A stretch of DNA of 64,000 nt from a virus. The stretch spans positions 1 through 64,000 of the IMG/VR virus record IMGVR_UViG_3300022751_000018, one strand, 5' to 3'. Of the stretch, positions 3,142-51,820 are shown one piece after another. Position 1 is the first letter of the stretch. The number at the start of each line of letters is the position of its first letter. Under the pieces are notes generated by a model. The model had not been told where the DNA came from. It ran no database searches and saw only the letters and a list, made by a program, of their open reading frames with translations. The position numbers and the translations under genes were made by a program.

Positions 3142-4368
3142 TTAAATTTCCCCTTTTTTGTATGCTGAAAGAAAGTCATAGGCTTCAACCTTTGGCTTAT
3201 CTGCTTTATCCATCGCCATAACAACTGCTTGTGGCGCTTCTTTTCCTGTTAAAAAACCTTTTAAATAGGTGACTTCATCCCCAATTGCGCATTCAATGGT
3301 ATGACCCATTTCCTTTAGTTTTTTAACGCCATATTGAGCCATTTCATTTAAAGTTAAAATATCTTTATTTGGAATAGTAATATGATCGGCAAGACTTTTT
3401 GCAAAATTTTCTCTTTCATTATTTCTAAGAAGGAATTCTTTTTCATCCATAGCTTTAGCGCCAGATTTTTCCTCATCCTTTTTATCTTCTTTGGATTCTT
3501 TTTCTGACTCGTCTTTAGCGGGAATTTTTTTATCTGCTTCACTTTCGCTATCAGCAATTGCAGCCGCTTTTGCTTCTTTCATTGCACGCACATCTTCACG
3601 TATTTCAGTAATCGCATCCATACAATCTTGAAGAGTAACAGACTTGTCTTTTGACTCATCTTTTTTTGATTCTTCATCTTTCATAGGAGCGTCTTTAGAC
3701 TCATCGTCTTTCTTGTATTCGTTATCAGCCATTTCAATAACCGCCTCTTGATTTGTTTCCGCTTGATCAAGAACCGCTACCAACGCACCCGATCGACCAT
3801 TGTTTACGATTGCAATATGATTGCCTGCGATGTTTTCTTGCACCACTTCGTATTCCTGTCCATTATAAACACCGTTTTGTATTTTGTACAAGCAGGTTGC
3901 TCCAATAGATATTTGTTTTTTTCCTTTTTCCATTTCTTTATTCATGTGGCCTGAAAAAAACATTAAATTAGATTTTAACATTCCGTCAGTTTCATCATAG
4001 AAAACCTCTTGCCCAGTAGCTCCATGTACTATTTTTTCTTCTGGCAAAATTCCATCTTTATTACTCACTGATAAGTAAGCGTGTCCATCAATAATTGGTT
4101 TTATTTTAAAAGAATCTAAAGTGTCACTTGCAGATAATTGCGCTGGAGATCTAAAAACTTTATACATTTTATTAGGATCAATTCCTTCTAAAACATTTCC
4201 ATCTGAATCAATAATGTTTTTCCCGAGATATTCTAATATCCCAGATCGCGCGATAGGGTTTGCTTTAATTTCGAAAAAACCATCTTTATTATAGTTTCTT
4301 TTGCTTTCTGAAATATCAAAAGCTAAATGAATTTCAGATAATTCATTTTGTAATTCAATCGTCGCCAT
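3142..4368 (-). CDS. putative scaffolding / prohead-processing protein with an acidic KDE-rich C-terminal half
   Basis: 408 aa. Long low-complexity acidic stretch (KDDESKDAPMKDEESKKDESKDKS...) typical of scaffold proteins. Position between the MuF-like and capsid genes. Confidence 0.4.
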   Translation of the reverse strand: MATIELQNELSEIHLAFDISESKRNYNKDGFFEIKANPIARSGILEYLGKNIIDSDGNVLEGIDPNKMYKVFRSPAQLSASDTLDSFKIKPIIDGHAYLSVSNKDGILPEEKIVHGATGQEVFYDETDGMLKSNLMFFSGHMNKEMEKGKKQISIGATCLYKIQNGVYNGQEYEVVQENIAGNHIAIVNNGRSGALVAVLDQAETNQEAVIEMADNEYKKDDESKDAPMKDEESKKDESKDKSVTLQDCMDAITEIREDVRAMKEAKAAAIADSESEADKKIPAKDESEKESKEDKKDEEKSGAKAMDEKEFLLRNNERENFAKSLADHITIPNKDILTLNEMAQYGVKKLKEMGHTIECAIGDEVTYLKGFLTGKEAPQAVVMAMDKADKPKVEAYDFLSAYKKGEI

Positions 4369-9593: not shown

Positions 9594-10191
9594 TTGTTTG
9601 TCGGTGGTTAGCGTGGTTTTTATTAGTTACATGCTGATAATCGACAAAGAGCCTAGCGTATGACTATCTCTTTAAATGGGAGTCATACCCATGCTATTGA
9701 CGAATAGCATTAGCTTTATGGATTTCGGGGTAAATTCACGCGGTCTGCGAGATGGACGATGTTAGTTGCTATTTATCATCTATAATAAATAGATACAGTT
9801 TTTTGAAAGATTAATTACTGTTCCGTCGATACTCTGCGGAGAAATTTAACTTTCAGACAACGTGTTGTAAGTTTGCAGTCTTAAAAATTGAAACTTTCTA
9901 GCTGAAGTAATTGATCAGCGAAAGAGTTGCTATTTCTCAACTAAAATAGCGGTGTACATTGTATGGACTTACACCTTAAAACTTATAAGAACATTCAGTG
10001 CATTTGTTAGTTTGGTACTTAAAATTAAATTATACTTTCTAACCTTCGCTTTCAGGGGACAATGTTTAAGACAATAATGAAGCTACGTTTTGCAAGTTTA
10101 CGGTAAATACAGGAAACTTCCACGAAATAACTGTTTACGGGTATTTCTACGGCTTTGCAAGTTTGCGCTAAACAGGAAACTTGAACTTTGT

Positions 10192-10264
10192 GCACGCATA
10201 GGCTCAGTTGGTAGAGCGGTTGGCTTAATGCTGGCGAGCGCTGGTTCGAGTCCAGCTGCGTGCA
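10192..10264 (+). tRNA. tRNA-like gene with canonical acceptor, D and T arms but an irregular anticodon stem. Loop is CTTAATG; anticodon uncertain, possibly UAA.
   Basis: Acceptor GCACGCA/TGCGTGC. D arm GCTCAGTTGGTAGAGC. T arm GCTGGTTCGAGTCCAGC. One extra nucleotide sits at positions 8-9, and the anticodon stem would need three G-U pairs. Confidence 0.45.
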
Positions 10265-10270
10265 ATTTAT

Positions 10271-10346
10271 GCAGACGTCGCCTAGTGGTTAAGGCACTTG
10301 CTTGTCAAGCAAGGTATCGTGGGTTCAAATCCCATCGTCTGCGCCA
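10271..10346 (+). tRNA. tRNA-Asp (anticodon GTC), CCA encoded
   Basis: Acceptor GCAGACG/CGTCTGC. D arm GCCTAGTGGTTAAGGC. Anticodon arm CTTGC-TTGTCAA-GCAAG. T arm GTGGGTTCAAATCCCAT. Ends GCCA. Confidence 0.8.
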
Positions 10347-10355
10347 ATTTATTAT

Positions 10356-10428
10356 GTGAGTATAGCTCAGCGGTAGTAGCAGCGGACTCATAATCCGTCG
10401 GTCAATGGTTCGAATCCATTTGCTCGCA
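10356..10428 (+). tRNA. tRNA-Met/Ile2 type (anticodon CAT)
   Basis: Acceptor GTGAGTA/TGCTCGC with two G-U pairs. Anticodon arm GCGGA-CTCATAA-TCCGT. T arm AATGGTTCGAATCCATT. Confidence 0.6.
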
Positions 10429-10434
10429 ATTATG

Positions 10435-10505
10435 TCTTTTGTAGCTCAATAGTGGCAGCACTTCCTTGACCAGAAGAGGACCTGGTGCGATTCCAGGCAG
10501 AAGAC
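10435..10505 (+). tRNA. degenerate tRNA-like element (possible pseudogene)
   Basis: Acceptor TCTTTTG/CAGAAGA and T arm CCTGG-TGCGATT-CCAGG are present, but the T loop has G in place of conserved U55. No regular anticodon stem can be drawn. Confidence 0.3.
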
Positions 10506-10559: not shown

Positions 10560-10916
10560 ATGAACTTAGAATTAAATGAAGAAGAGTTTGATGCTTTATT
10601 GAATATGTGCATCATGGCACTAACAGTAGTGCAGCATAATGGCAATGTAACTCAGGATGAGATTCACATGAATGCGTTGTTTAACAAGATTGTTGCTTTA
10701 AAACCGAATCGAGATGAGTTTATTACAAATGAAAGATTTAATAGGCTTCATTATACTTTTTTTCATCCTTACCTTGATCATTTTAAAAACTTGCTTGATG
10801 AAGATGCAGAGCAGGCATTAGAAGTTAATGAAGTGGTTGATGCAGAGAATGTACAAGAGTTAGAGGAGCCGGTTGAGGCTGAGGTTATTAGAAATAATTT
10901 TTGGGGTAGATTATGA
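10560..10916 (+). CDS. hypothetical acidic protein
   Basis: 118-aa ORF, first gene after the tRNA cluster. Confidence 0.4.
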   Translation: MNLELNEEEFDALLNMCIMALTVVQHNGNVTQDEIHMNALFNKIVALKPNRDEFITNERFNRLHYTFFHPYLDHFKNLLDEDAEQALEVNEVVDAENVQELEEPVEAEVIRNNFWGRL

Positions 10917-11269
10917 AATTTTTAGAAGCGGCGAATAAGTTTAAAAAGATAAGGATGCCTAGCTGGTCAACTATATCTTTTGTAGAAAATGTTAATGGGT
11001 CATTAAAAATTAATTGCATGCTAACAACATCAGACCTTTCATCTGACGACTGGGAAGAATACAAAGAGCCACGCAAGTATCTTGAAAACAACAAGGAAGC
11101 TATGCAGGCTTTGATAGATGGCAAGAAGATTTCTAAAGACGCTTGGGGTGATGGTCGTTTTTTTACTCTTGATAAAGATGGATTTATAGTTGATAAGGAC
11201 GGTGATTATATTGATCCAACATGGCCCACCCCAAATTATCATGGCAAGTTTTATGTTGTTGAGGATTGA
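10913..11269 (+). CDS. DUF2829 (Tad2-like) family small protein
   Basis: N-terminus MKFLEAANKFKKIRMPSW fits the M.F.EAL..LK.GKK.RR..W pattern. DDWEEYKEPRKYL...AMQALIDGKK segment is shared with ORF 27913. Confidence 0.35.
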   Translation: MKFLEAANKFKKIRMPSWSTISFVENVNGSLKINCMLTTSDLSSDDWEEYKEPRKYLENNKEAMQALIDGKKISKDAWGDGRFFTLDKDGFIVDKDGDYIDPTWPTPNYHGKFYVVED

Positions 11270-11541
11270 TGATATCAGGCTTTGAAATAAAGAAAACCTT
11301 AAAACTTGTAAAGCCATCATCTAATACTTATAAGGCACTTAGAGATAGAAATCCTTTGTGTAGCATATTCTATTGTTTCGGTTGTGATCTTTATGTTGTT
11401 TCTTATATTTTTGGGCCAAATATAAACATGATGATATGGTTAGAATCAGGCGGCACTGCTTATGATTTGGATCACTTTGATTATGATATTCAGCCTAGGC
11501 TTGCTATGTGTGGACATAGTTATGTCACATTTTAAAATTAT

Positions 11542-11609
11542 GATTCAGTAGCTCCAATGGAAGAGCCCCGAAAGGGAGTGGTGCAGGGTTCGATTCCCTG
11601 CCTGAGTCA
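11542..11609 (+). ncRNA. tRNA-like element lacking an anticodon arm (replaced by a CCC-GAAA-GGG tetraloop hairpin)
   Basis: Acceptor GATTCAG/CTGAGTC. Consensus D arm GCTCCAATGGAAGAGC. Consensus T loop GGTTCGATTCC. Total 68 nt. Confidence 0.35.
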
Positions 11610-11626
11610 ATAAATAGGATTAAATT

Positions 11627-11905
11627 ATGGAAATAGAGATAGAAAAAAAATATAATTTTACTATGACTCAGATAGAGTATAACAATATAAGTGATTTATT
11701 ATTATTGGCAAGGAATATCATAGAGTATGCTTCATTCGAAAATTCTGATCTATCTTCTTGTAGAGAAAAAGCATTTGATATTGTAGAAAATTTTAATTTA
11801 TATACTCCTTATTGTAAGGAAAAGTCATTTTTTTTCGAGGATGAAATTTTGGCTCTTGCTTCTAAAAACATAGCCACAAGGATTAGTATTCATGGCGGCA
11901 TTTAA
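11627..11905 (+). CDS. hypothetical protein
   Basis: 92-aa ORF preceded by an AT-rich RBS. Confidence 0.35.
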   Translation: MEIEIEKKYNFTMTQIEYNNISDLLLLARNIIEYASFENSDLSSCREKAFDIVENFNLYTPYCKEKSFFFEDEILALASKNIATRISIHGGI

Positions 11906-11935: not shown

Positions 11936-12310
11936 ATGAGCTTAGATGTTTACTTATGGAAAGAAAAGTATGTTTGTTATGGAAAGCCAAGCTTAGAAGG
12001 ACTAAAAAGAGAAGATGAGATGGTATTTTGTCAAAATATTACTCACAACTTAAATGAAATGGCCATGGCTGTTTCTGATGATTTCTATAAGGCTTTGTGG
12101 CGTCCAGAAGAAATAAATTGTAAGTATGCAAAAGATATAGTGCTTATTCTTTCAAAAGGATATTTTGAATTATTAGGTAATGAAGAAGTATATAAAAAAT
12201 ACGATTCTCCAAATGGCTGGGGACTTTATAAAAACTTTTTGCCATGGGTTAAAGAATATTTGGATGCTTGCAAAGAACATCCAGATTCAGAAATAGAAGT
12301 AAGTCGATAA
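11936..12310 (+). CDS. hypothetical protein
   Basis: 124-aa ORF with RBS GGAGTAAAACAATG. Confidence 0.4.
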   Translation: MSLDVYLWKEKYVCYGKPSLEGLKREDEMVFCQNITHNLNEMAMAVSDDFYKALWRPEEINCKYAKDIVLILSKGYFELLGNEEVYKKYDSPNGWGLYKNFLPWVKEYLDACKEHPDSEIEVSR

Positions 12311-16225: not shown

Positions 16226-16673
16226 AGTTAAATTCTTGAGTCTTCCAGAGGATTTCAAGGATGGCATAAAGTTTGCTCAATATAATTTTTCTACTTTTAG
16301 GGCTCTAAATAGTATGCAGCTAGTCCAAGTTTCTGGAACTACAGACCTATTTATAGCTCAATTTTGCAATAGTGGCGGATTTATGTTTCTTCTTGAGGAA
16401 TGTGAAGCGTCATTTCAGCAAAGCGGATTTCCTTTTGAGGTTTTGTGGAGCGCTGATCTTCCTGATTACATTTATCAGTCTATTGTTGAATGTGAAAAAA
16501 TAAAAGATTTTAGAATTTTTAAAACATTATGCGAGCTTGCCAGGCAAAGAAAAAAGAATGCAGGAGTTTCTATTCAACTGTCATTTAAAGAGCTTGGCCA
16601 GATAACAAGCAATAATATTTCAAAGGAGCTTAGATCTAAGCTTAATCAATATGCTGATAAGGAGTATGAATAA
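16215..16673 (+). CDS. hypothetical protein immediately upstream of rtcB
   Basis: 152-aa ORF whose stop/start junction with RtcB overlaps (..KEYE* / MNHKV). Confidence 0.4.
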   Translation: MNHKVKFLSLPEDFKDGIKFAQYNFSTFRALNSMQLVQVSGTTDLFIAQFCNSGGFMFLLEECEASFQQSGFPFEVLWSADLPDYIYQSIVECEKIKDFRIFKTLCELARQRKKNAGVSIQLSFKELGQITSNNISKELRSKLNQYADKEYE

Positions 16674-18796
16674 TGAATCACAAGGTAATCTCTGGATTAT
16701 TTCATAAGCCAATTAAAATGTGGACGAATGGTTTGTCAGTTGAAGACGATGCGCTGACTCAGTTGAAAAATACTGCGTCAATGTCATTTGTTCGCCCTCA
16801 TGTCTCCGTAATGCCCGATGTTCATCTAGGCAAAGGGTCAACGATTGGGAGCGTAATACCTACGCAAGGCGCGATAATTCCGGCAACAGTTGGTGTTGAC
16901 ATTGGATGCTTTGTTGGCGAAACAAAGATTCCTCTGCTTAATGGAACACAAAAAACTCTTAAAGAGCTGGCAGAATATACAGAGCCGTTTTGGGTTTATT
17001 CTTGCAGTAATTTTAAAGTTGTTGCAGGTAAAGCTACTTGTAAAAAAACCAGAAAAGATGCTGATCTAGTTAAAGTTACTATATCTGGAGGTGATGAAAT
17101 AATATGCACCCCAGATCATAAATTTATGTTATTTGATGGTAGCTATAAAGAAGCCAAGGATCTTTCATATAATGAAAGTCTAATGCCTCTTTATAGAAAA
17201 TGGCATAAAAAAGATGGCTATGAAAGCTCTAACTGTGGATACAACACATCAAATTTGACTCATTGGGCATCATGGGAATCTATACATGGAGAAATACCCA
17301 AGGGATATGTTATTCACCACAGAGATCATTTTTATCTTAACAATGATCCAGATAATTTAGAGGCAATGACTGCAAGAGATCATTCAAAGCATCATAGGTT
17401 GGACAATCAAACATTTGACAATTCAAGCGAAGAGTTTCAAAAATTAAGAATGGCAGGAATAAAAAGAAGAGTATCAGATCCTGTGTCTTTTGAGAAAATG
17501 GTCAAGGTTGGAACTGAAAATATTAAAAAATACATGGAAGAGTCAAGAGAGGATTTTCTCGACAAGGTGAAGGATAATGGAAAAAGAGGGGCGCCATATT
17601 TACATAAATTTAATACGTCGCCACGCTCATGTGATGAATGCGACCATACTTCTAAGAACCCAGCGGCATTAAATTGGCATAAAAGAAAAGAGCATGGTAG
17701 TAATCATAGGGTCATTTCTGTAGAAAATCTTGGATTTAAGGATGATGTATATTGTCTAACAGTAGAAGACCATCACAACTTTGCATTATGCGCGGGTGTT
17801 TTTGTTCATAATTGCGGAATGATGGCCATTAAAACATCTTTGATGGCTTCAGATCTTCCCGATAACTTATTTGGCATTCGGTCGGCAATTGAATCGGCCG
17901 TTCCCCATGGTAGAAATGGCGGCCAAGGTCGAGACAAGGGAGCCTGGGGAAATATTCCACATGGAATAAGAAATATTTGGAATGCACAACTTTTAACTGA
18001 TTTTTATAAAATAGTCGATAAATATCCTTCACTTAGAAAGACTAACAATGACAATCACTTAGGAACTCTAGGCACGGGAAACCATTTTATTGAGCTCTGC
18101 ATCGATGAAGATAGTCATGTCTGGGTTATGTTGCACTCAGGATCTCGCGGCGTAGGCAATGCGATAGGCACGTTATTCATTGAGTTAGCAAAGAAAGACA
18201 TGCAGCGTTATTTCATTAACTTACCTGATGTCGATTTAGCTTATCTGCCAGAAGGATCTGTTTATTTTGACGATTACATCTTTGCATTAAATTGGGCTCA
18301 GAAGTTTGCAGCGTTGAATCGTGAAATCATGATGGATAATGTCTTGTCAGCGCTTCACTCAATCATAACGAAGAAATTCTGCTGTCTCGAAGAAGCAATA
18401 AACTGCCATCACAACTACGTTCAAAAGGAGCATCATTTTGGAAAAAATCTTTGGATTACTCGTAAAGGCGCTGTGTCTGCCAAGGAATCTCAGTTGGGAA
18501 TTATTCCTGGCAGCATGGGCGCTAAAAGCTTTATTGTTCGAGGTCTTGGCAATGCCGATTCGTTTCATTCGTGCAGTCATGGCGCGGGAAGGGTAATGAG
18601 CCGAACTCAGGCTAAAAAAATAATAACGCTTGATGATCATATCAAAGCCACGAGTCATGTCGAGTGCAGAAAGGATGAAGATGTGATCGACGAGTCACCG
18701 TCTTGTTACAAAGATATTGATTCAGTCATGGCGGCTCAGCCTGATTTGGTTGAAATTGTTCATACACTACGACAAGTAGTCTGTGTTAAGGGGTAA
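16673..18796 (+). CDS. rtcB: RtcB-family RNA 3-prime-phosphate/cyclase-end ligase, interrupted by an intein
   Basis: Extein motifs: MPDVHLGKGSTIGSV, GVDIG|C..., GTGNHFIELC, CSHGAGR. The spliced extein totals 78 + 328 aa. Confidence 0.85.
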   Translation: MNHKVISGLFHKPIKMWTNGLSVEDDALTQLKNTASMSFVRPHVSVMPDVHLGKGSTIGSVIPTQGAIIPATVGVDIGCFVGETKIPLLNGTQKTLKELAEYTEPFWVYSCSNFKVVAGKATCKKTRKDADLVKVTISGGDEIICTPDHKFMLFDGSYKEAKDLSYNESLMPLYRKWHKKDGYESSNCGYNTSNLTHWASWESIHGEIPKGYVIHHRDHFYLNNDPDNLEAMTARDHSKHHRLDNQTFDNSSEEFQKLRMAGIKRRVSDPVSFEKMVKVGTENIKKYMEESREDFLDKVKDNGKRGAPYLHKFNTSPRSCDECDHTSKNPAALNWHKRKEHGSNHRVISVENLGFKDDVYCLTVEDHHNFALCAGVFVHNCGMMAIKTSLMASDLPDNLFGIRSAIESAVPHGRNGGQGRDKGAWGNIPHGIRNIWNAQLLTDFYKIVDKYPSLRKTNNDNHLGTLGTGNHFIELCIDEDSHVWVMLHSGSRGVGNAIGTLFIELAKKDMQRYFINLPDVDLAYLPEGSVYFDDYIFALNWAQKFAALNREIMMDNVLSALHSIITKKFCCLEEAINCHHNYVQKEHHFGKNLWITRKGAVSAKESQLGIIPGSMGAKSFIVRGLGNADSFHSCSHGAGRVMSRTQAKKIITLDDHIKATSHVECRKDEDVIDESPSCYKDIDSVMAAQPDLVEIVHTLRQVVCVKG
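16907..17812 (+). other. intein (302 aa) inserted at the catalytic Cys of the RtcB GVDIGCGM motif; carries an HNH endonuclease plus a zinc-finger domain
   Basis: Starts CFVGETKIPLLNG and ends VFVHN followed by CGMMAIK. Internal HNH motif YVIHHRDHFYLNNDPDNLEAMTARDHSKHH and zinc finger CDECDHTSKNPAALNWHKRKEH. Confidence 0.8.
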
Positions 18797-22828: not shown

Positions 22829-23287
22829 ATGAAAACAGTCATATTTGACCTAGACGGAACGTTGGCGGATGTATCCCATAGGAGACGTTTTAAAGACGAT
22901 GGCTCGTTTGATTGGAAGTATTTTAATGATCCTGAGAATATTAAGAATGACACTCCTAATAAGCCTATAATTGATTTATACAATCATTTTAGGCTTGGAG
23001 AAAAATACAAGTCTGTTGTTCTATCAGGAAGGATGAAGGATCATTTTGATATAACCGTTGATTGGTTTAGAAAGCATGTTGATGCTTACATGTTGATATC
23101 TCACACCATTATTATGAGAGAAATTGGAGACTATCGAGAAGACTATATCATCAAGAAAGAAATGCTAGATAATTTGCTAAGCAAAGGCCACGAAATAGCA
23201 TTCGCAATCGATGATCGGGATCAGATCGTAGAGCTATGGCGTAGTCTTGGTATTACTTGTCTTCAGTGTGCTAAGGGGAATTTTTAA
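22829..23287 (+). CDS. HAD-superfamily phosphatase (Pnk 3-prime-phosphatase-like / nucleotidase-like)
   Basis: Motif I VIFDLDGTLADV. Motif II-like VVLSGR. FAIDDRDQ. Confidence 0.6.
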   Translation: MKTVIFDLDGTLADVSHRRRFKDDGSFDWKYFNDPENIKNDTPNKPIIDLYNHFRLGEKYKSVVLSGRMKDHFDITVDWFRKHVDAYMLISHTIIMREIGDYREDYIIKKEMLDNLLSKGHEIAFAIDDRDQIVELWRSLGITCLQCAKGNF

Positions 23288-37097: not shown

Positions 37098-37170
37098 GCG
37101 ATAGTAGCTCAATTGGCAGAGCGCCTGGTTTCCACCTAGGAGGTTGCACGTTCAACTCGTGTCTGTCGCT
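37098..37170 (+). tRNA. tRNA-Gly (anticodon TCC)
   Basis: Acceptor GCGATAG/CTGTCGC. D arm GCTCAATTGGCAGAGC. Anticodon arm CCTGG-TTTCCAC-CTAGG. T arm GCACGTTCAACTCGTGT. Confidence 0.7.
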
Positions 37171-37177
37171 AATCTTT

Positions 37178-37251
37178 CCGTCAATCGTATAATGGCATTA
37201 CCTTGGCCTCCAAAGCCAAAGATTTGAGTTCGATTCTTAATTGACGGGCCA
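37178..37251 (+). tRNA. tRNA-Trp (anticodon CCA), CCA encoded
   Basis: Acceptor CCGTCAA/TTGACGG. Anticodon arm TTGGC-CTCCAAA-GCCAA. T arm TTGAGTTCGATTCTTAA. Ends GCCA. Confidence 0.7.
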
Positions 37252-48837: not shown

Positions 48838-49085
48838 AAAAACAGATATTAACTTATCTAGGAAATATGATAGCGTCATTTAAAGAGCAGGATAGGCTTG
48901 AATCTTTATGTGTTGCAAATTCATTAAAGACCTTTGTTGAGAAATTAAACGATCCCATAGTTGAAAGTAATTTTTCTTTTTATGAAAAACGAAATATTAT
49001 CAATTCTATTGGGTATGCCGTTCAAGAAGAAATTTTTAATGAAAAAACAGGGTTTCAACTAATTAAAAAGGTTTGCGAATTATGA
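48834..49085 (+). CDS. hypothetical protein
   Basis: 83-aa ORF. Confidence 0.3.
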   Translation: MKKQILTYLGNMIASFKEQDRLESLCVANSLKTFVEKLNDPIVESNFSFYEKRNIINSIGYAVQEEIFNEKTGFQLIKKVCEL

Positions 49086-49894
49086 GAACTGAAAAATTTA
49101 TATCAAAAGATGGATTCGAAATTCAACAGTTTGATAGTGGCGAGTGGGATGTTCGCCTAATCGACTGCAAAAATTTAAACACTGAAGTTATTTGGAACTG
49201 GTTTAAAGAGCCAGATATTATGATTCCTTTGCTTAAGGCAGATTGCATACGTCAAGTATTTGGGCTAGTTGAATTGACTTTGATTTGCAAATATCTTCCT
49301 TATTCAAGGCAGGATAGAGCTTTTAATTTAGGACAAGGAATACCTGCCCAAAGGATTGTTAGAACTTTGTTTAATCAGTTTGAATCAATAGAAACAATGT
49401 GCCTTCATAACTTTCCAATTCCTCATGATGGCGACGAAAGAATTTACAATGAATTTATTGAAATTAATAATAACAAAATAATTGTTTTTCCTGATAAAAA
49501 TGCCCCAAGACATTTTAATGTTAATGACTCAGTTCCTCATATAATGCTTGAGAAAATTAGGTCAGAAAATGGTATAAAATCTGAAATAACTTGCGAAAGT
49601 CTTCCTGATGGTGTTTCTGAGTTTGATATAAATGAATCATTTTTAATATGTGATGATATATGCGATGGGGGAAGATCCTTTGTAGAATGCTCTGAAAAAT
49701 TAAAAGAAAGATTCGGTCATGATATTAAAATAGAACTTTTAGTAGCGCATGGATTTTTATCCCGTGGTTTAGAGACATTAAAAGCAAGCGGTATATCAAA
49801 GATATATATAGCCAATTATGACTCTTACGAATATTTACGAGATAAATTCAATGATGATTATATTGAATTTCTTGGCCTCCAAATGCCATTTTAA
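49073..49894 (+). CDS. ribose-phosphate pyrophosphokinase (Prs)-like enzyme; candidate ADPR-PP synthetase (Adps) of NARP1
   Basis: LPYSRQDRAF (Prs N-domain motif). PRPP-binding loop FLICDDICDGGRSF. Shorter (273 aa) than housekeeping Prs. Directly upstream of the NAMPT-like gene. Confidence 0.55.
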   Translation: MRIMRTEKFISKDGFEIQQFDSGEWDVRLIDCKNLNTEVIWNWFKEPDIMIPLLKADCIRQVFGLVELTLICKYLPYSRQDRAFNLGQGIPAQRIVRTLFNQFESIETMCLHNFPIPHDGDERIYNEFIEINNNKIIVFPDKNAPRHFNVNDSVPHIMLEKIRSENGIKSEITCESLPDGVSEFDINESFLICDDICDGGRSFVECSEKLKERFGHDIKIELLVAHGFLSRGLETLKASGISKIYIANYDSYEYLRDKFNDDYIEFLGLQMPF

Positions 49895-49907
49895 TTAAGG
49901 AATAAAA

Positions 49908-50141
49908 ATGTGTACTGAACTTTTCGAAATTGGGCAATCAGAAATAAAAATTAAAAATGGATTTCTTGTTCAAGGAGATTTTAGTGCAATAAAAATACAA
50001 GAAATAATAAGTATATATAAGACTGGGTTAGAATATTTGCATATAAATATCAAAGGGATTGATTATTGCCATCCACATAGATTTTTTTCGGAAAATGAAC
50101 GAAATTTAATATTTAATAAAATTATTGAGAATAAGGAATAA
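49908..50141 (+). CDS. hypothetical small protein
   Basis: 77-aa ORF. Confidence 0.3.
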   Translation: MCTELFEIGQSEIKIKNGFLVQGDFSAIKIQEIISIYKTGLEYLHINIKGIDYCHPHRFFSENERNLIFNKIIENKE

Positions 50142-50143
50142 AA

Positions 50144-51820
50144 ATGAACCCACTATTATTAACTGACGCCTATAAAACAGGCCATCATAAACAATATCCT
50201 GAAGGCACTACGTTGGTTTATTCCAATTTTACGCCACGCAGCAATAAGTACGCGCCTAAAGGATACGATCATGTCGTTTCTTTTGGTATGCAGGCAGTGT
50301 TTAAATTCATAGATCAAATATTCGTTAATGACTTTTTCAAAAAACCAAAAGAAGAAGTTTGTGGCGAAATGAAGCGTGAACTGTCGCTTTACCTAAATAC
50401 TGACTACGATGTTTCTCATTTTGAAGCGCTTCATGATCTTGGCTATCTTCCTATTTGTGTTAAGACAATTGAAGAGGGTTCCTTGGTTCCCATGAAGGTT
50501 CCTGTATTAACGATTTATAATACGCATCCTGATTTTTTCTGGGTGACAAACTACTTAGAAACTTTAATAAGCAATTTACTTTGGAAGCCTTTGACCTCAG
50601 CAACAATCGCCTTTCAGTACAAAAAGCTATTAACTGAATGGGCTTTAAAAACTGACAAAGAGAATGTAGATTTTGTTGATTTTCAGGCTCATGATTTTTC
50701 TATGAGAGGATTAAGTGGAATTGACTGTGCGGTTTTCTCTGGTCTAGGCCATTTAACATCTTTCAAAGGAACGGATAGCTTGCCTGCTATTTGGGGTGCT
50801 AGGCAGTTTTATGGAATGATAGGTTCAAAAGAAGATCCATTTATCGCTGGCAGCGTTAATGCAACCGAGCATAGCGTAATGTGTGCGGGCGGCAAAGAAG
50901 ATGAGCTTGAAACTTTTAGACGTTTGCTCTCAACTTACCCAACGGGAATACTATCAATCGTATCTGACACGTGGGATTTGTGGAAAGTGCTCACTGAGTA
51001 TCTTCCTATCTTACGTAATGAGATTATGGCACGCGACGGTAAGATTGTGATTCGTCCTGATAGTGGCAAACCAACGGATATTATTTGTGGCGATTCAGTA
51101 TTGAAATATGAAAATCTTAAAAAAGCAAAAGACAAATTTGAGCAGAATATTCATGATATGCAGGAGCATGGCGAACAGGGTGACGATGAATATGATTGCA
51201 TATCTAAAATTGGGGACAAGTTTTATAAATTGAATGCTGAGATTGAATGGAATCGTTACGATAAACAATATTATCATATTGAAGGAATTCGCATTTCTGA
51301 AGAAGAATATTATTTGAACAACAAAGAAAAAGGTGTCATAGAGCTACTGTGGGACATATTCGGAGGAACAGTAAATTCACAAGGCTATAAGGTTCTTGAT
51401 CCACACATTGGAGCTATCTACGGTGATTCTATTACGCTTGAAGTAGCCGAAGATATTTGTCAACGCTTACAAGCGAAAGGTTTCGCGTCAACGAATATTA
51501 TTTTTGGAATAGGTTCATTCACATATCAGATGAATACCCGAGATACCTTTGGCTTTGCCATGAAATCAACTTATGTCGAAATAAACGGCCAAGGTCATAA
51601 TATTTTCAAAGATCCTATTACGGATGATGGCATGAAGAAGAGCGCCACTGGGTTATTAGGTGTTGGAATTTTGCCAGAAAATAAAGAATTTATACTTGTT
51701 AATGGATGCTCCTGGGAAGTTGAAAAAACAGGATCATTACAGGAAATCTACAGAGACGGTAATTTTAGCAATCAGACTAATTTAGAAAATATTAGAAAAA
51801 AACTTAAGGAACGGTTATGA
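50144..51820 (+). CDS. nadV: nicotinamide phosphoribosyltransferase family (NadV/NAMPT-like); candidate Namat of NARP1
   Basis: N-terminal NPLLLTDAYKTGHHKQYPEGTTLVYSNFTPRS matches the NadV signature (DxYKxxH..YP....YS.FTPRS). Length 558 aa. Confidence 0.8.
   Translation: MNPLLLTDAYKTGHHKQYPEGTTLVYSNFTPRSNKYAPKGYDHVVSFGMQAVFKFIDQIFVNDFFKKPKEEVCGEMKRELSLYLNTDYDVSHFEALHDLGYLPICVKTIEEGSLVPMKVPVLTIYNTHPDFFWVTNYLETLISNLLWKPLTSATIAFQYKKLLTEWALKTDKENVDFVDFQAHDFSMRGLSGIDCAVFSGLGHLTSFKGTDSLPAIWGARQFYGMIGSKEDPFIAGSVNATEHSVMCAGGKEDELETFRRLLSTYPTGILSIVSDTWDLWKVLTEYLPILRNEIMARDGKIVIRPDSGKPTDIICGDSVLKYENLKKAKDKFEQNIHDMQEHGEQGDDEYDCISKIGDKFYKLNAEIEWNRYDKQYYHIEGIRISEEEYYLNNKEKGVIELLWDIFGGTVNSQGYKVLDPHIGAIYGDSITLEVAEDICQRLQAKGFASTNIIFGIGSFTYQMNTRDTFGFAMKSTYVEINGQGHNIFKDPITDDGMKKSATGLLGVGILPENKEFILVNGCSWEVEKTGSLQEIYRDGNFSNQTNLENIRKKLKERL

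Follow-up and report, generated by a model that had tools for sequence, protein, structure and literature searches.

A conserved phage RNA with a tRNA core and no anticodon arm

The 64,000-nt stretch of viral DNA analyzed here (positions 1–64,000 of IMG/VR record IMGVR_UViG_3300022751_000018, hereafter the window) carries at positions 11542–11609 of its plus strand a 68-nt tRNA-like cloverleaf, in which acceptor, D and T arms are combined with a short stub hairpin where the anticodon arm of a tRNA would be found. This element is a member of a conserved family and not a one-off deletion variant, and its tRNA-shaped RNA structure is under purifying selection. A conserved phage RNA keeping every tRNA core contact yet lacking an anticodon arm is apparently new, and no phage-encoded tRNA-like family without this arm was found described in the searchable full-text literature. 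As to its role, we tentatively favor, on the strength of the sequence, a trans-acting non-decoding tRNA mimic or decoy that would be transcribed within a longer message and released from it.

The fold of the window element is well defined. Its 7-bp acceptor stem (GAUUCAG/CUGAGUC), already recognized in the original prediction, is evident from the sequence and from the minimum free energy (MFE) fold, and includes a single U-G wobble (U3-G70). The MFE structure is exactly the four-helix cloverleaf (−27.8 kcal/mol, 85% of the ensemble, z = −3.55), and not one of 200 shuffles of the element folded as well as the real sequence. The Rfam tRNA model RF00005, in the Infernal comparison proposed along with the prediction, aligns from the first to the last position at 26.7 bits, below its gathering score of 29, with 11 nt occupying the place of the 17-nt anticodon arm of the model; alignment and sequence are thus in agreement with the predicted replacement of that arm by CCC-GAAA-GGG. 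As in canonical tRNAs, a 7-bp acceptor, a D arm and a T arm with a UUCRANY loop are all present, the T loop (UUCGAUU) matching the consensus attributed to it. The D arm had likewise been described as consensus, which holds for the presence of its stem and loop; its loop opens with C instead of the near-universal A14. Further departures from the canonical plan are a T stem capable of forming 6 bp, not 5, so that the acceptor/T stack would extend over 13 bp, not 12; a stub hairpin that abuts the D stem directly, with no position-26 nucleotide; and the absence of a 5-bp/7-nt anticodon arm, for which a 10-nt hairpin (3 bp and GAAA) is substituted. CCA is not encoded after the element, and AUAAAU comes next. 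The element is not capable of decoding, as had been proposed, because the stub is only 3–6 bp long across the family and its loop is not conserved; a decoding tRNA was ruled out by the missing anticodon arm. An attP copy of a host tRNA was also considered and rejected, since such a copy would carry only the 3′ part of the tRNA. Neither ARAGORN nor an Rfam scan at gathering thresholds called the element, while five ordinary phage tRNAs in the window were called. Standard tRNA finders miss such elements, and phage annotations therefore overlook them systematically.

DNA-pattern scans of IMG/VR, in which a D arm, a short middle region and a T loop were required, uncovered 24 phage loci (19 distinct sequences) of the same architecture, and in this way the suggestion that the variant be sought in other phages was rewarded. 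The shared plan consists of a 7-bp acceptor, UA, the D arm GCUC-NAARGGNA-GAGC, a hairpin of 3–6 bp, the linker AGUG(G)U, a 6-bp T stem, the loop UUCGANU, and the acceptor 3′ strand usually followed by a discriminator A. The window element fits this plan, and the largest group of the family (GACGCAG...) matches it at 31 of 33 positions in the 3′ half. A covariance model built from 20 distinct sequences (R1) scores members at 70–94 bits and every other tRNA or tRNA-like sequence in approximately 2 Mb of phage DNA at 53 bits or less, while a leave-one-out model of the 19 relatives without the window (R2) assigns the window element 74.5 bits (E = 8.6e-21) and the window's own tRNAs no more than 31 bits. 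Such a model makes the family searchable. Pairing holds in 98.6% of cells when the sequences are aligned by the model, and compensatory double changes occur at 12 of the 22 pairs, a level of pairing and compensation reached by none of 500 column shuffles, and partner columns that have been slid out of register pair at only about 40%. RNAalifold independently predicts the same structure. Compensatory changes affect five of seven acceptor pairs, with G1-C72 and G7-C66 nearly or fully invariant, and four of the five modeled pairs of the stub. These comparative data (family alignment and covariance models) support the initial description of a tRNA-like RNA in which the acceptor, D and T arms are preserved. 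The possibility that it belongs to a larger known RNA family, raised beforehand as grounds for abandoning that description, finds no counterpart in Rfam, where the best permissive match other than tRNA reaches 15 bits.

The same data bear upon the simplest explanation of a truncated tRNA, a decaying pseudogene of a phage tRNA whose anticodon arm was partly deleted and whose sequence is now drifting. The presence of tRNA clusters in the window (10191–10505 and 37098–37251) and an Rfam score just under the tRNA threshold are what such a relic might offer. Covariation and family conservation contradict this origin, however: homologs number about 24 in other phage contigs and dozens among metagenomic genes, three helices contain compensatory changes around invariant core positions, the stub is always a clean hairpin, and the element has kept a G+C content of 56% in a genome of 35% G+C. 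Drift of this kind is consequently highly improbable.

Conservation is concentrated in those nucleotides that shape a tRNA. The assignment of core and elbow positions is established tRNA structural knowledge, U8 and A9 being canonical core positions. Invariant across the family are U8, A9, G10-C25, U12-A23, C13-G22, G18 and G19, A21, the GG of the linker and the UUCGANU loop, and the D loop follows the pattern N-A-A-R-G-G-N-A throughout. The outer G-C of the T stem never covaries, so that the sixth T-stem pair, having no covariation support, is a putative one. Most of the variation in the family resides in the stub hairpin, whose stems include CCC/GGG, CUGC/GCAG, CCCGC/GCGGG, CUCCG/CGGAG, CGUUC/GAACG and CCCAAG/CUUGGG, and whose loops may be GAAA, GCAA, GUGA, GCAG, CUCG, UUCG, AAAU, AUUU, GAAC or AAA. 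The GAAA tetraloop itself is therefore not a conserved feature, and a loop this varied holds no conserved information, certainly no anticodon. Part of the observed invariance, including that of the linker AGUG(G)U, is imposed by the search patterns, and the family is probably more diverse than these members show. A scan of IMG/VR relaxed to the 3′ half, with no constraint on the D arm, found no new members and none with a different D stem, and scans of metagenomes and genomes with a pattern allowing 26-nt spacing gave 244 matches of which 241 were ordinary tRNAs, mostly Lys, His, Asn and Val. An early pattern (GAGC-N-CCGAAAGG...) was discarded, having matched only the long variable arms of type II tRNAs. 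The family's distribution beyond IMG/VR is drawn solely from the protein search described below. The parts of the window element and its flanking genes are collected in Table 1.

Table 1. Parts of the tRNA-like element and adjacent open reading frames (ORFs), in window coordinates
Feature	Position	Strand	Remarks
Upstream ORF, 87 aa, no known family	11272..11535	+	TAA stop 6 nt before element, frame 0
Acceptor stem 5′ strand, GAUUCAG	11542..11548	+	pairs with 11602-11608
Connector U8 A9	11549..11550	+	no change among the 20 distinct family sequences
D arm, stem GCUC/GAGC, loop CAAUGGAA	11551..11566	+	stem invariant in family
Stub hairpin CCC-GAAA-GGG replacing anticodon arm	11567..11576	+	family hairpin 3-6 bp, loop variable
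Linker AGUGGU (variable-loop equivalent)	11577..11582	+	AGUG(G)U kept in all members
T arm, 6-bp stem GCAGGG/CCCUGC, loop UUCGAUU	11583..11601	+	3 of 6 stem pairs covary
Acceptor stem 3′ strand CUGAGUC and discriminator A	11602..11609	+	discriminator A in 18 of 20 distinct members
Downstream ORF, 92 aa, orphan	11627..11905	+	AGGA ribosome-binding site 7 nt after element

Mimics of tRNA are known in several settings, among them tmRNA, Y RNAs, mascRNA and the 3′ ends of plant viruses, but the element belongs to none of the known families with which it was compared. The closest in appearance are perhaps mascRNA and menRNA (from MALAT1 and MEN-beta, respectively), RNAs some 60 nt long that combine acceptor, D-like and T arms with a curtailed anticodon stem incapable of decoding, and that are likewise embedded in a longer transcript and freed by tRNA-processing enzymes, although for the phage RNA this release is only predicted. 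For mascRNA, excision from the longer transcript is carried out by RNase P and RNase Z (PMC11693755). These RNAs differ in being eukaryotic and nuclear, and in residing at the 3′ end of a non-coding RNA rather than in phage mRNAs or ORFs, and no sequence relationship is apparent: against the mascRNA-menRNA model RF01684 the window element scores 15.3 bits (gathering score 42.5), through its T arm only. The tRNA-like domain of tmRNA also mimics tRNA with acceptor and T arms and no anticodon arm, but is assembled from the far-apart ends of a long RNA, lacks a D stem, and comes with a tag frame and pseudoknots. A tmRNA was itself rejected as a candidate, none being called by ARAGORN in the window and no tmRNA family by Rfam, and the element being a contiguous 68 nt devoid of tag frame and pseudoknots.

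Y RNAs of the YrlA type call for closer scrutiny, since they imitate the T and D arms of tRNA, occur in some phages and are linked to RtcB operons (PMC4201824), and an RtcB gene is encoded 5 kb downstream of the element. In this scenario the element would be a Y-RNA-like mimic acting with a Ro60/Rsr–RtcB RNA-repair module. Three features define YrlA RNAs, namely a Ro60-binding helix into which the RNA ends pair, a GNCGAA motif, and a TROVE gene no more than about 4 kb away (PMC4201824); they thus have the opposite topology, with an acceptor-like stem that is closed by a loop and a nearby Ro60 gene as a requirement. Here the RNA ends form an acceptor stem and not a Ro60-binding helix, the stub loop is not conserved, no TROVE gene is present in the 5 kb to each side or in the larger ORFs that were scanned, and no Y RNA family emerged from the permissive Rfam scan (in which the 15-bit match mentioned above was the best outside tRNA). 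An origin of this type is scarcely credible.

A different aspect of the family is its frequent residence inside protein genes. At 17 of the 24 IMG/VR loci an upstream ORF is in frame 0 with the first base of the element and reads through into a downstream module. An ORF runs through copies only where their length is 69 or 72 nt, never where it is 68 or 71 nt; at the 71-nt copies (L392, L398) and at one 72-nt copy (L396) the ORF ends at a UGA in the hairpin loop, and at L389 a stop codon immediately precedes the element. The window copy, with its 68 nt, lies outside ORFs, as do those of L137 and L389, and is not embedded in frame, an in-frame TAA being found two codons upstream and another directly after the element. 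Synonymous variation upstream of the element, exemplified by the peptide YEAGYN that is encoded in three different ways, confirms the upstream coding frame. A protein search with one spanning ORF identified 1,236 homologs, the best 120 of which include 70 with the element-encoded peptide (DAVAxxxEP.....G.GFESLPAS). Residues encoded by the hairpin vary radically (RASGS, PAAES, RLGGS, RSGES) while RNA pairing is kept, indicating that selection acts upon the RNA and not upon the protein. The proteins in question (P0122–P0241 and those of loci L378–L399 and L455, with the 1,236 matches) are small mosaic phage proteins composed of shuffled modules, including MTDRELMQQALEAL..., ...EQEPVAW... and WQGLTDEEI...AIEAKLKEKNT, with DUF551 present in one member, and this mosaic family houses most copies of the tRNA-like cassette. 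Pfam and PHROGs searches of the flanking modules revealed no informative family.

Comparison of these proteins provides insight into how the element may have come to reside in them. In P0144 and P0195, which lack the peptide, ...RIPLYLN is joined directly to AQWQGLTDEEI, whereas P0122 and about 70 other proteins contain 24 extra codons at this very junction. At the DNA level the empty allele of L455 and the filled allele of L393 are approximately 99% identical up to ...CTCAAC, at which point the filled allele has GACGCAG...CTGCGTCA inserted before the sequences resume; this insertion or deletion of 72 nt corresponds, within one base, to the segment from G1 to A73. The element therefore behaves as a discrete cassette with the borders of a mature tRNA. 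Nearly identical elements are joined to at least three unrelated upstream modules and to several downstream modules, and copies are found at unrelated intergenic sites as well (the window, L137 and L389). Partial remnants are found in P0211 and P0155, and 13 of the 20 distinct copies have CC directly after A73, which could be the relic of a CCA tail.

Taken as they stand, these findings may describe a selfish or passenger cassette, a tRNA-derived block that moves from one phage gene to another, perhaps by way of an RNA intermediate, and survives in frame within tolerant linkers or in intergenic gaps, its fold serving its own propagation and processing rather than the phage. No other explanation accounts as well for the coexistence of filled and empty alleles, for borders that are exact, for translated copies being confined to lengths divisible by three, and for the frequent CC. 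A parallel exists in the Rickettsia palindromic elements, which are in-frame selfish insertions in protein genes: these too are short structured repeats that are translated, and homologous genes exist with and without the insert. They differ in being simple palindromes with many copies per genome, whereas the phage family has a four-helix tRNA fold, apparently a single copy per phage, and conserved tertiary nucleotides. Were the element indeed mobile, it would exemplify something rare, a structured-RNA gene lying in frame within protein genes with RNA-processing sites for borders. Against mobility, no enzyme that could confer it, target-site duplication or conserved terminal sequence was found, the only terminal inverted repeat being the acceptor stem, which covaries freely; one copy only per contig was seen at the family loci; and recombination of mosaic genes at a conserved linker could mimic movement. 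The full set of tRNA tertiary contacts is also conserved, suggesting a function that needs a genuine tRNA shape. Selfish spread appears somewhat unlikely, while deserving real weight.

The window copy, in turn, invites an interpretation in cis. The RNase III sites of T7 early RNA illustrate how processing signals may divide an early phage transcript, and in a similar manner the fold could recruit RNase P and the enzymes of 3′ tRNA maturation to cut an early polycistronic message and set the ends and stabilities of the resulting mRNAs. Its placement is suggestive, as the 91 nt that separate two small ORFs of the same strand are occupied by the element, at the distances from stop codon and ribosome-binding site given in Table 1. 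Promoter- and terminator-like matches around it are at chance level, with no convincing promoter or terminator of its own; a sigma-70-like match, TGGACA-16-TAAAAT (11511–11538, plus strand, ending 3 nt before G1), was dismissed because the scan is at chance and a transcript starting there would have a truncated acceptor stem. Intergenic copies at L389, directly behind a stop codon, and at L137 are in keeping with the same role. A documented precedent is found in the t-elements of plant mitochondria, tRNA-like folds within mRNAs where RNase P and RNase Z define transcript ends (PMC1920247). However, these cis-acting t-elements as a rule retain no more of a tRNA than features of its acceptor and T arm, while the phage RNA keeps the entire tRNA core and often lies in translated ORFs. 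Acceptor and T arms would suffice for cleavage, yet here invariance extends to the D arm, the linker and the core triples, and in the majority of members a cut would abolish the protein encoded by the read-through ORF. A processing signal fits the window copy and not the ORF-embedded majority, and as an account of the family is unlikely, if still a serious rival.

These considerations lead back to the non-decoding mimic. The element would be transcribed within an early polycistronic message, from which RNase P would cut at G1, followed by a 3′ endonuclease or exonucleases and finally by the CCA-adding enzyme, to yield an L-shaped RNA of about 70 nt. Excision by RNase P and the 3′ tRNA-maturation pathway is what the acceptor/T stack, G1, the intact elbow and the lack of an own promoter or terminator lead us to infer, and on this model the element is a predicted substrate of RNase P, RNase Z and the CCA-adding enzyme. 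Since a full tRNA core is kept, beyond what RNase P and RNase Z require as signals, the released RNA is suggested to resemble tRNA in the eyes of some protein. It might then occupy proteins that recognize the elbow, core and acceptor end of tRNA, while being barred from decoding and offering no anticodon loop for anticodon nucleases to cleave. The target would plausibly be a tRNA-targeting defense effector or another tRNA-binding host factor, a view compatible with the early region of this phage because it carries RtcB, PNKP and NAD-salvage genes. Roles listed in the original prediction (substrate of RNase P or the CCA-adding enzyme, decoy for tRNA-targeting nucleases, regulatory RNA) are all plausible from the sequence alone. 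Canonical phage tRNAs, proposed to act as counter-defense against tRNA-targeting systems (PMC12409363), are likewise tRNA-shaped, phage-borne and located in early or accessory regions, but they decode and replace cleaved host tRNAs, whereas the present RNA could act only by binding. A decoy of this kind would constitute an RNA-based counter-defense aimed at tRNA-targeting immunity.

Several observations weigh against the decoy. Its main difficulty, and an awkward one, is that most relatives lie inside translated ORFs, where excision would come at the cost of the mRNA, whose 5′ part would be left without a stop codon. Nor is there any protein partner that accompanies the element consistently, and the link to defense depends on gene neighborhood in one phage only. 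An acceptor/T stack of 13 bp is atypical of the RNAs on which tRNA enzymes act, as is a C at D-loop position 14, and a decoy of this design would go unbound by any anticodon nuclease whose recognition site is the anticodon loop itself. The decoy, the selfish cassette and the processing signal are not mutually exclusive, and one may envisage a horizontally spreading cassette of 68–72 nt, dropped precisely (G1 to A73) into gaps or in-frame linkers, released by host tRNA enzymes as an uncleavable decoy that blunts tRNA-targeting immunity, and representing one lineage of a wider anticodon-less class. In its entirety, this combined scenario is decidedly unlikely.

The genomic setting of the window copy is that of a phage of approximately 35% G+C with an E217-like head and tail module; its sequence is also present in a Logan assembly, and the contig of origin measures 68 kb. 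Searches by megablast and blastn against 50,697 phage records returned only T-loop matches and no close sequenced phage, and the nearest TerL is 52% identical and derives from E217-like phages of 42–45 kb whose early regions are unrelated. Synteny is consequently not usable, there being no close relatives with a related early region, and the ORF at 11936 has no relative in IMG/VR. In a second phage (L386), an integrase and a T7-like RNA polymerase flank the element, which again places it in an early region. The RtcB RNA ligase of the window (16673–18796, plus strand), 5 kb downstream of the element, is interrupted by an intein with an HNH endonuclease domain, and a stand-alone PNKP phosphatase domain follows 4 kb beyond (22829–23287, plus strand); together these look like a phage tRNA/RNA-repair kit. 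NAMPT and an adjoining upstream ORF (49073–51820, plus strand), the latter with a weak match to a PRPP-synthetase-associated domain, may serve in NAD salvage. Two genes upstream of the element, an ORF at 10913–11269 (plus strand) has a weak, sub-threshold Tad2-like match. The NAMPT/PRPP-type and Tad2-like ORFs suggest that the early region is an anti-defense island. Around the element, where a tRNA cluster is located as well, functions of RNA repair and counter-defense are abundant.

Five to six phage tRNAs are encoded in the window, the number depending on a sixth tRNA-shaped sequence (10435–10505, plus strand) located directly after a tRNA-Met. Neither ARAGORN nor Rfam applied to the whole window detected it, but a local Rfam scan assigned it 35.9 bits, above the gathering score; its aberrant T loop (UGCGAUU) and non-standard anticodon loop mark it as a possible further non-canonical tRNA.

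The family is apparently a single branch of a wider class that has gone unnoticed. An IMG/VR scan for the commonest D arm and T loop separated by a short middle region revealed at least 80 distinct elements (loci L013–L132) with at least six of seven acceptor pairs, a D arm and a full T stem, in which 8–19 nt separate the D and T stems, as opposed to 22–23 nt in canonical tRNAs. These spacings cluster at 9 nt, with no hairpin, and at 16–19 nt, with a stub of 3–5 bp. Recurrent among them is a group with the acceptor YGGAAYG/CRUUCCR and a 4-bp stub, and a 58-nt group (ACGUGCA...) has no stub at all. One contig (L115, minus strand) contains four dispersed anticodon-arm-less copies of 55–62 nt (350–410, 2052–2113, 3556–3610 and 10701–10761), each followed by the same conserved stretch of about 45 nt, in the manner of a repeated unit. 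In another (L132, 14421–14723, minus strand) two short tRNA-like elements of 58 and 65 nt stand in tandem with a tRNA of normal length, a cluster that suggests co-transcription and tRNA-type processing of the short class. A separate oddity encountered in IMG/VR (L001, L002 and L005) is a type II tRNA with a long variable arm and an apparent UCA anticodon (loop GUUCAUA), which could be an opal-suppressor or selenocysteine-like tRNA.
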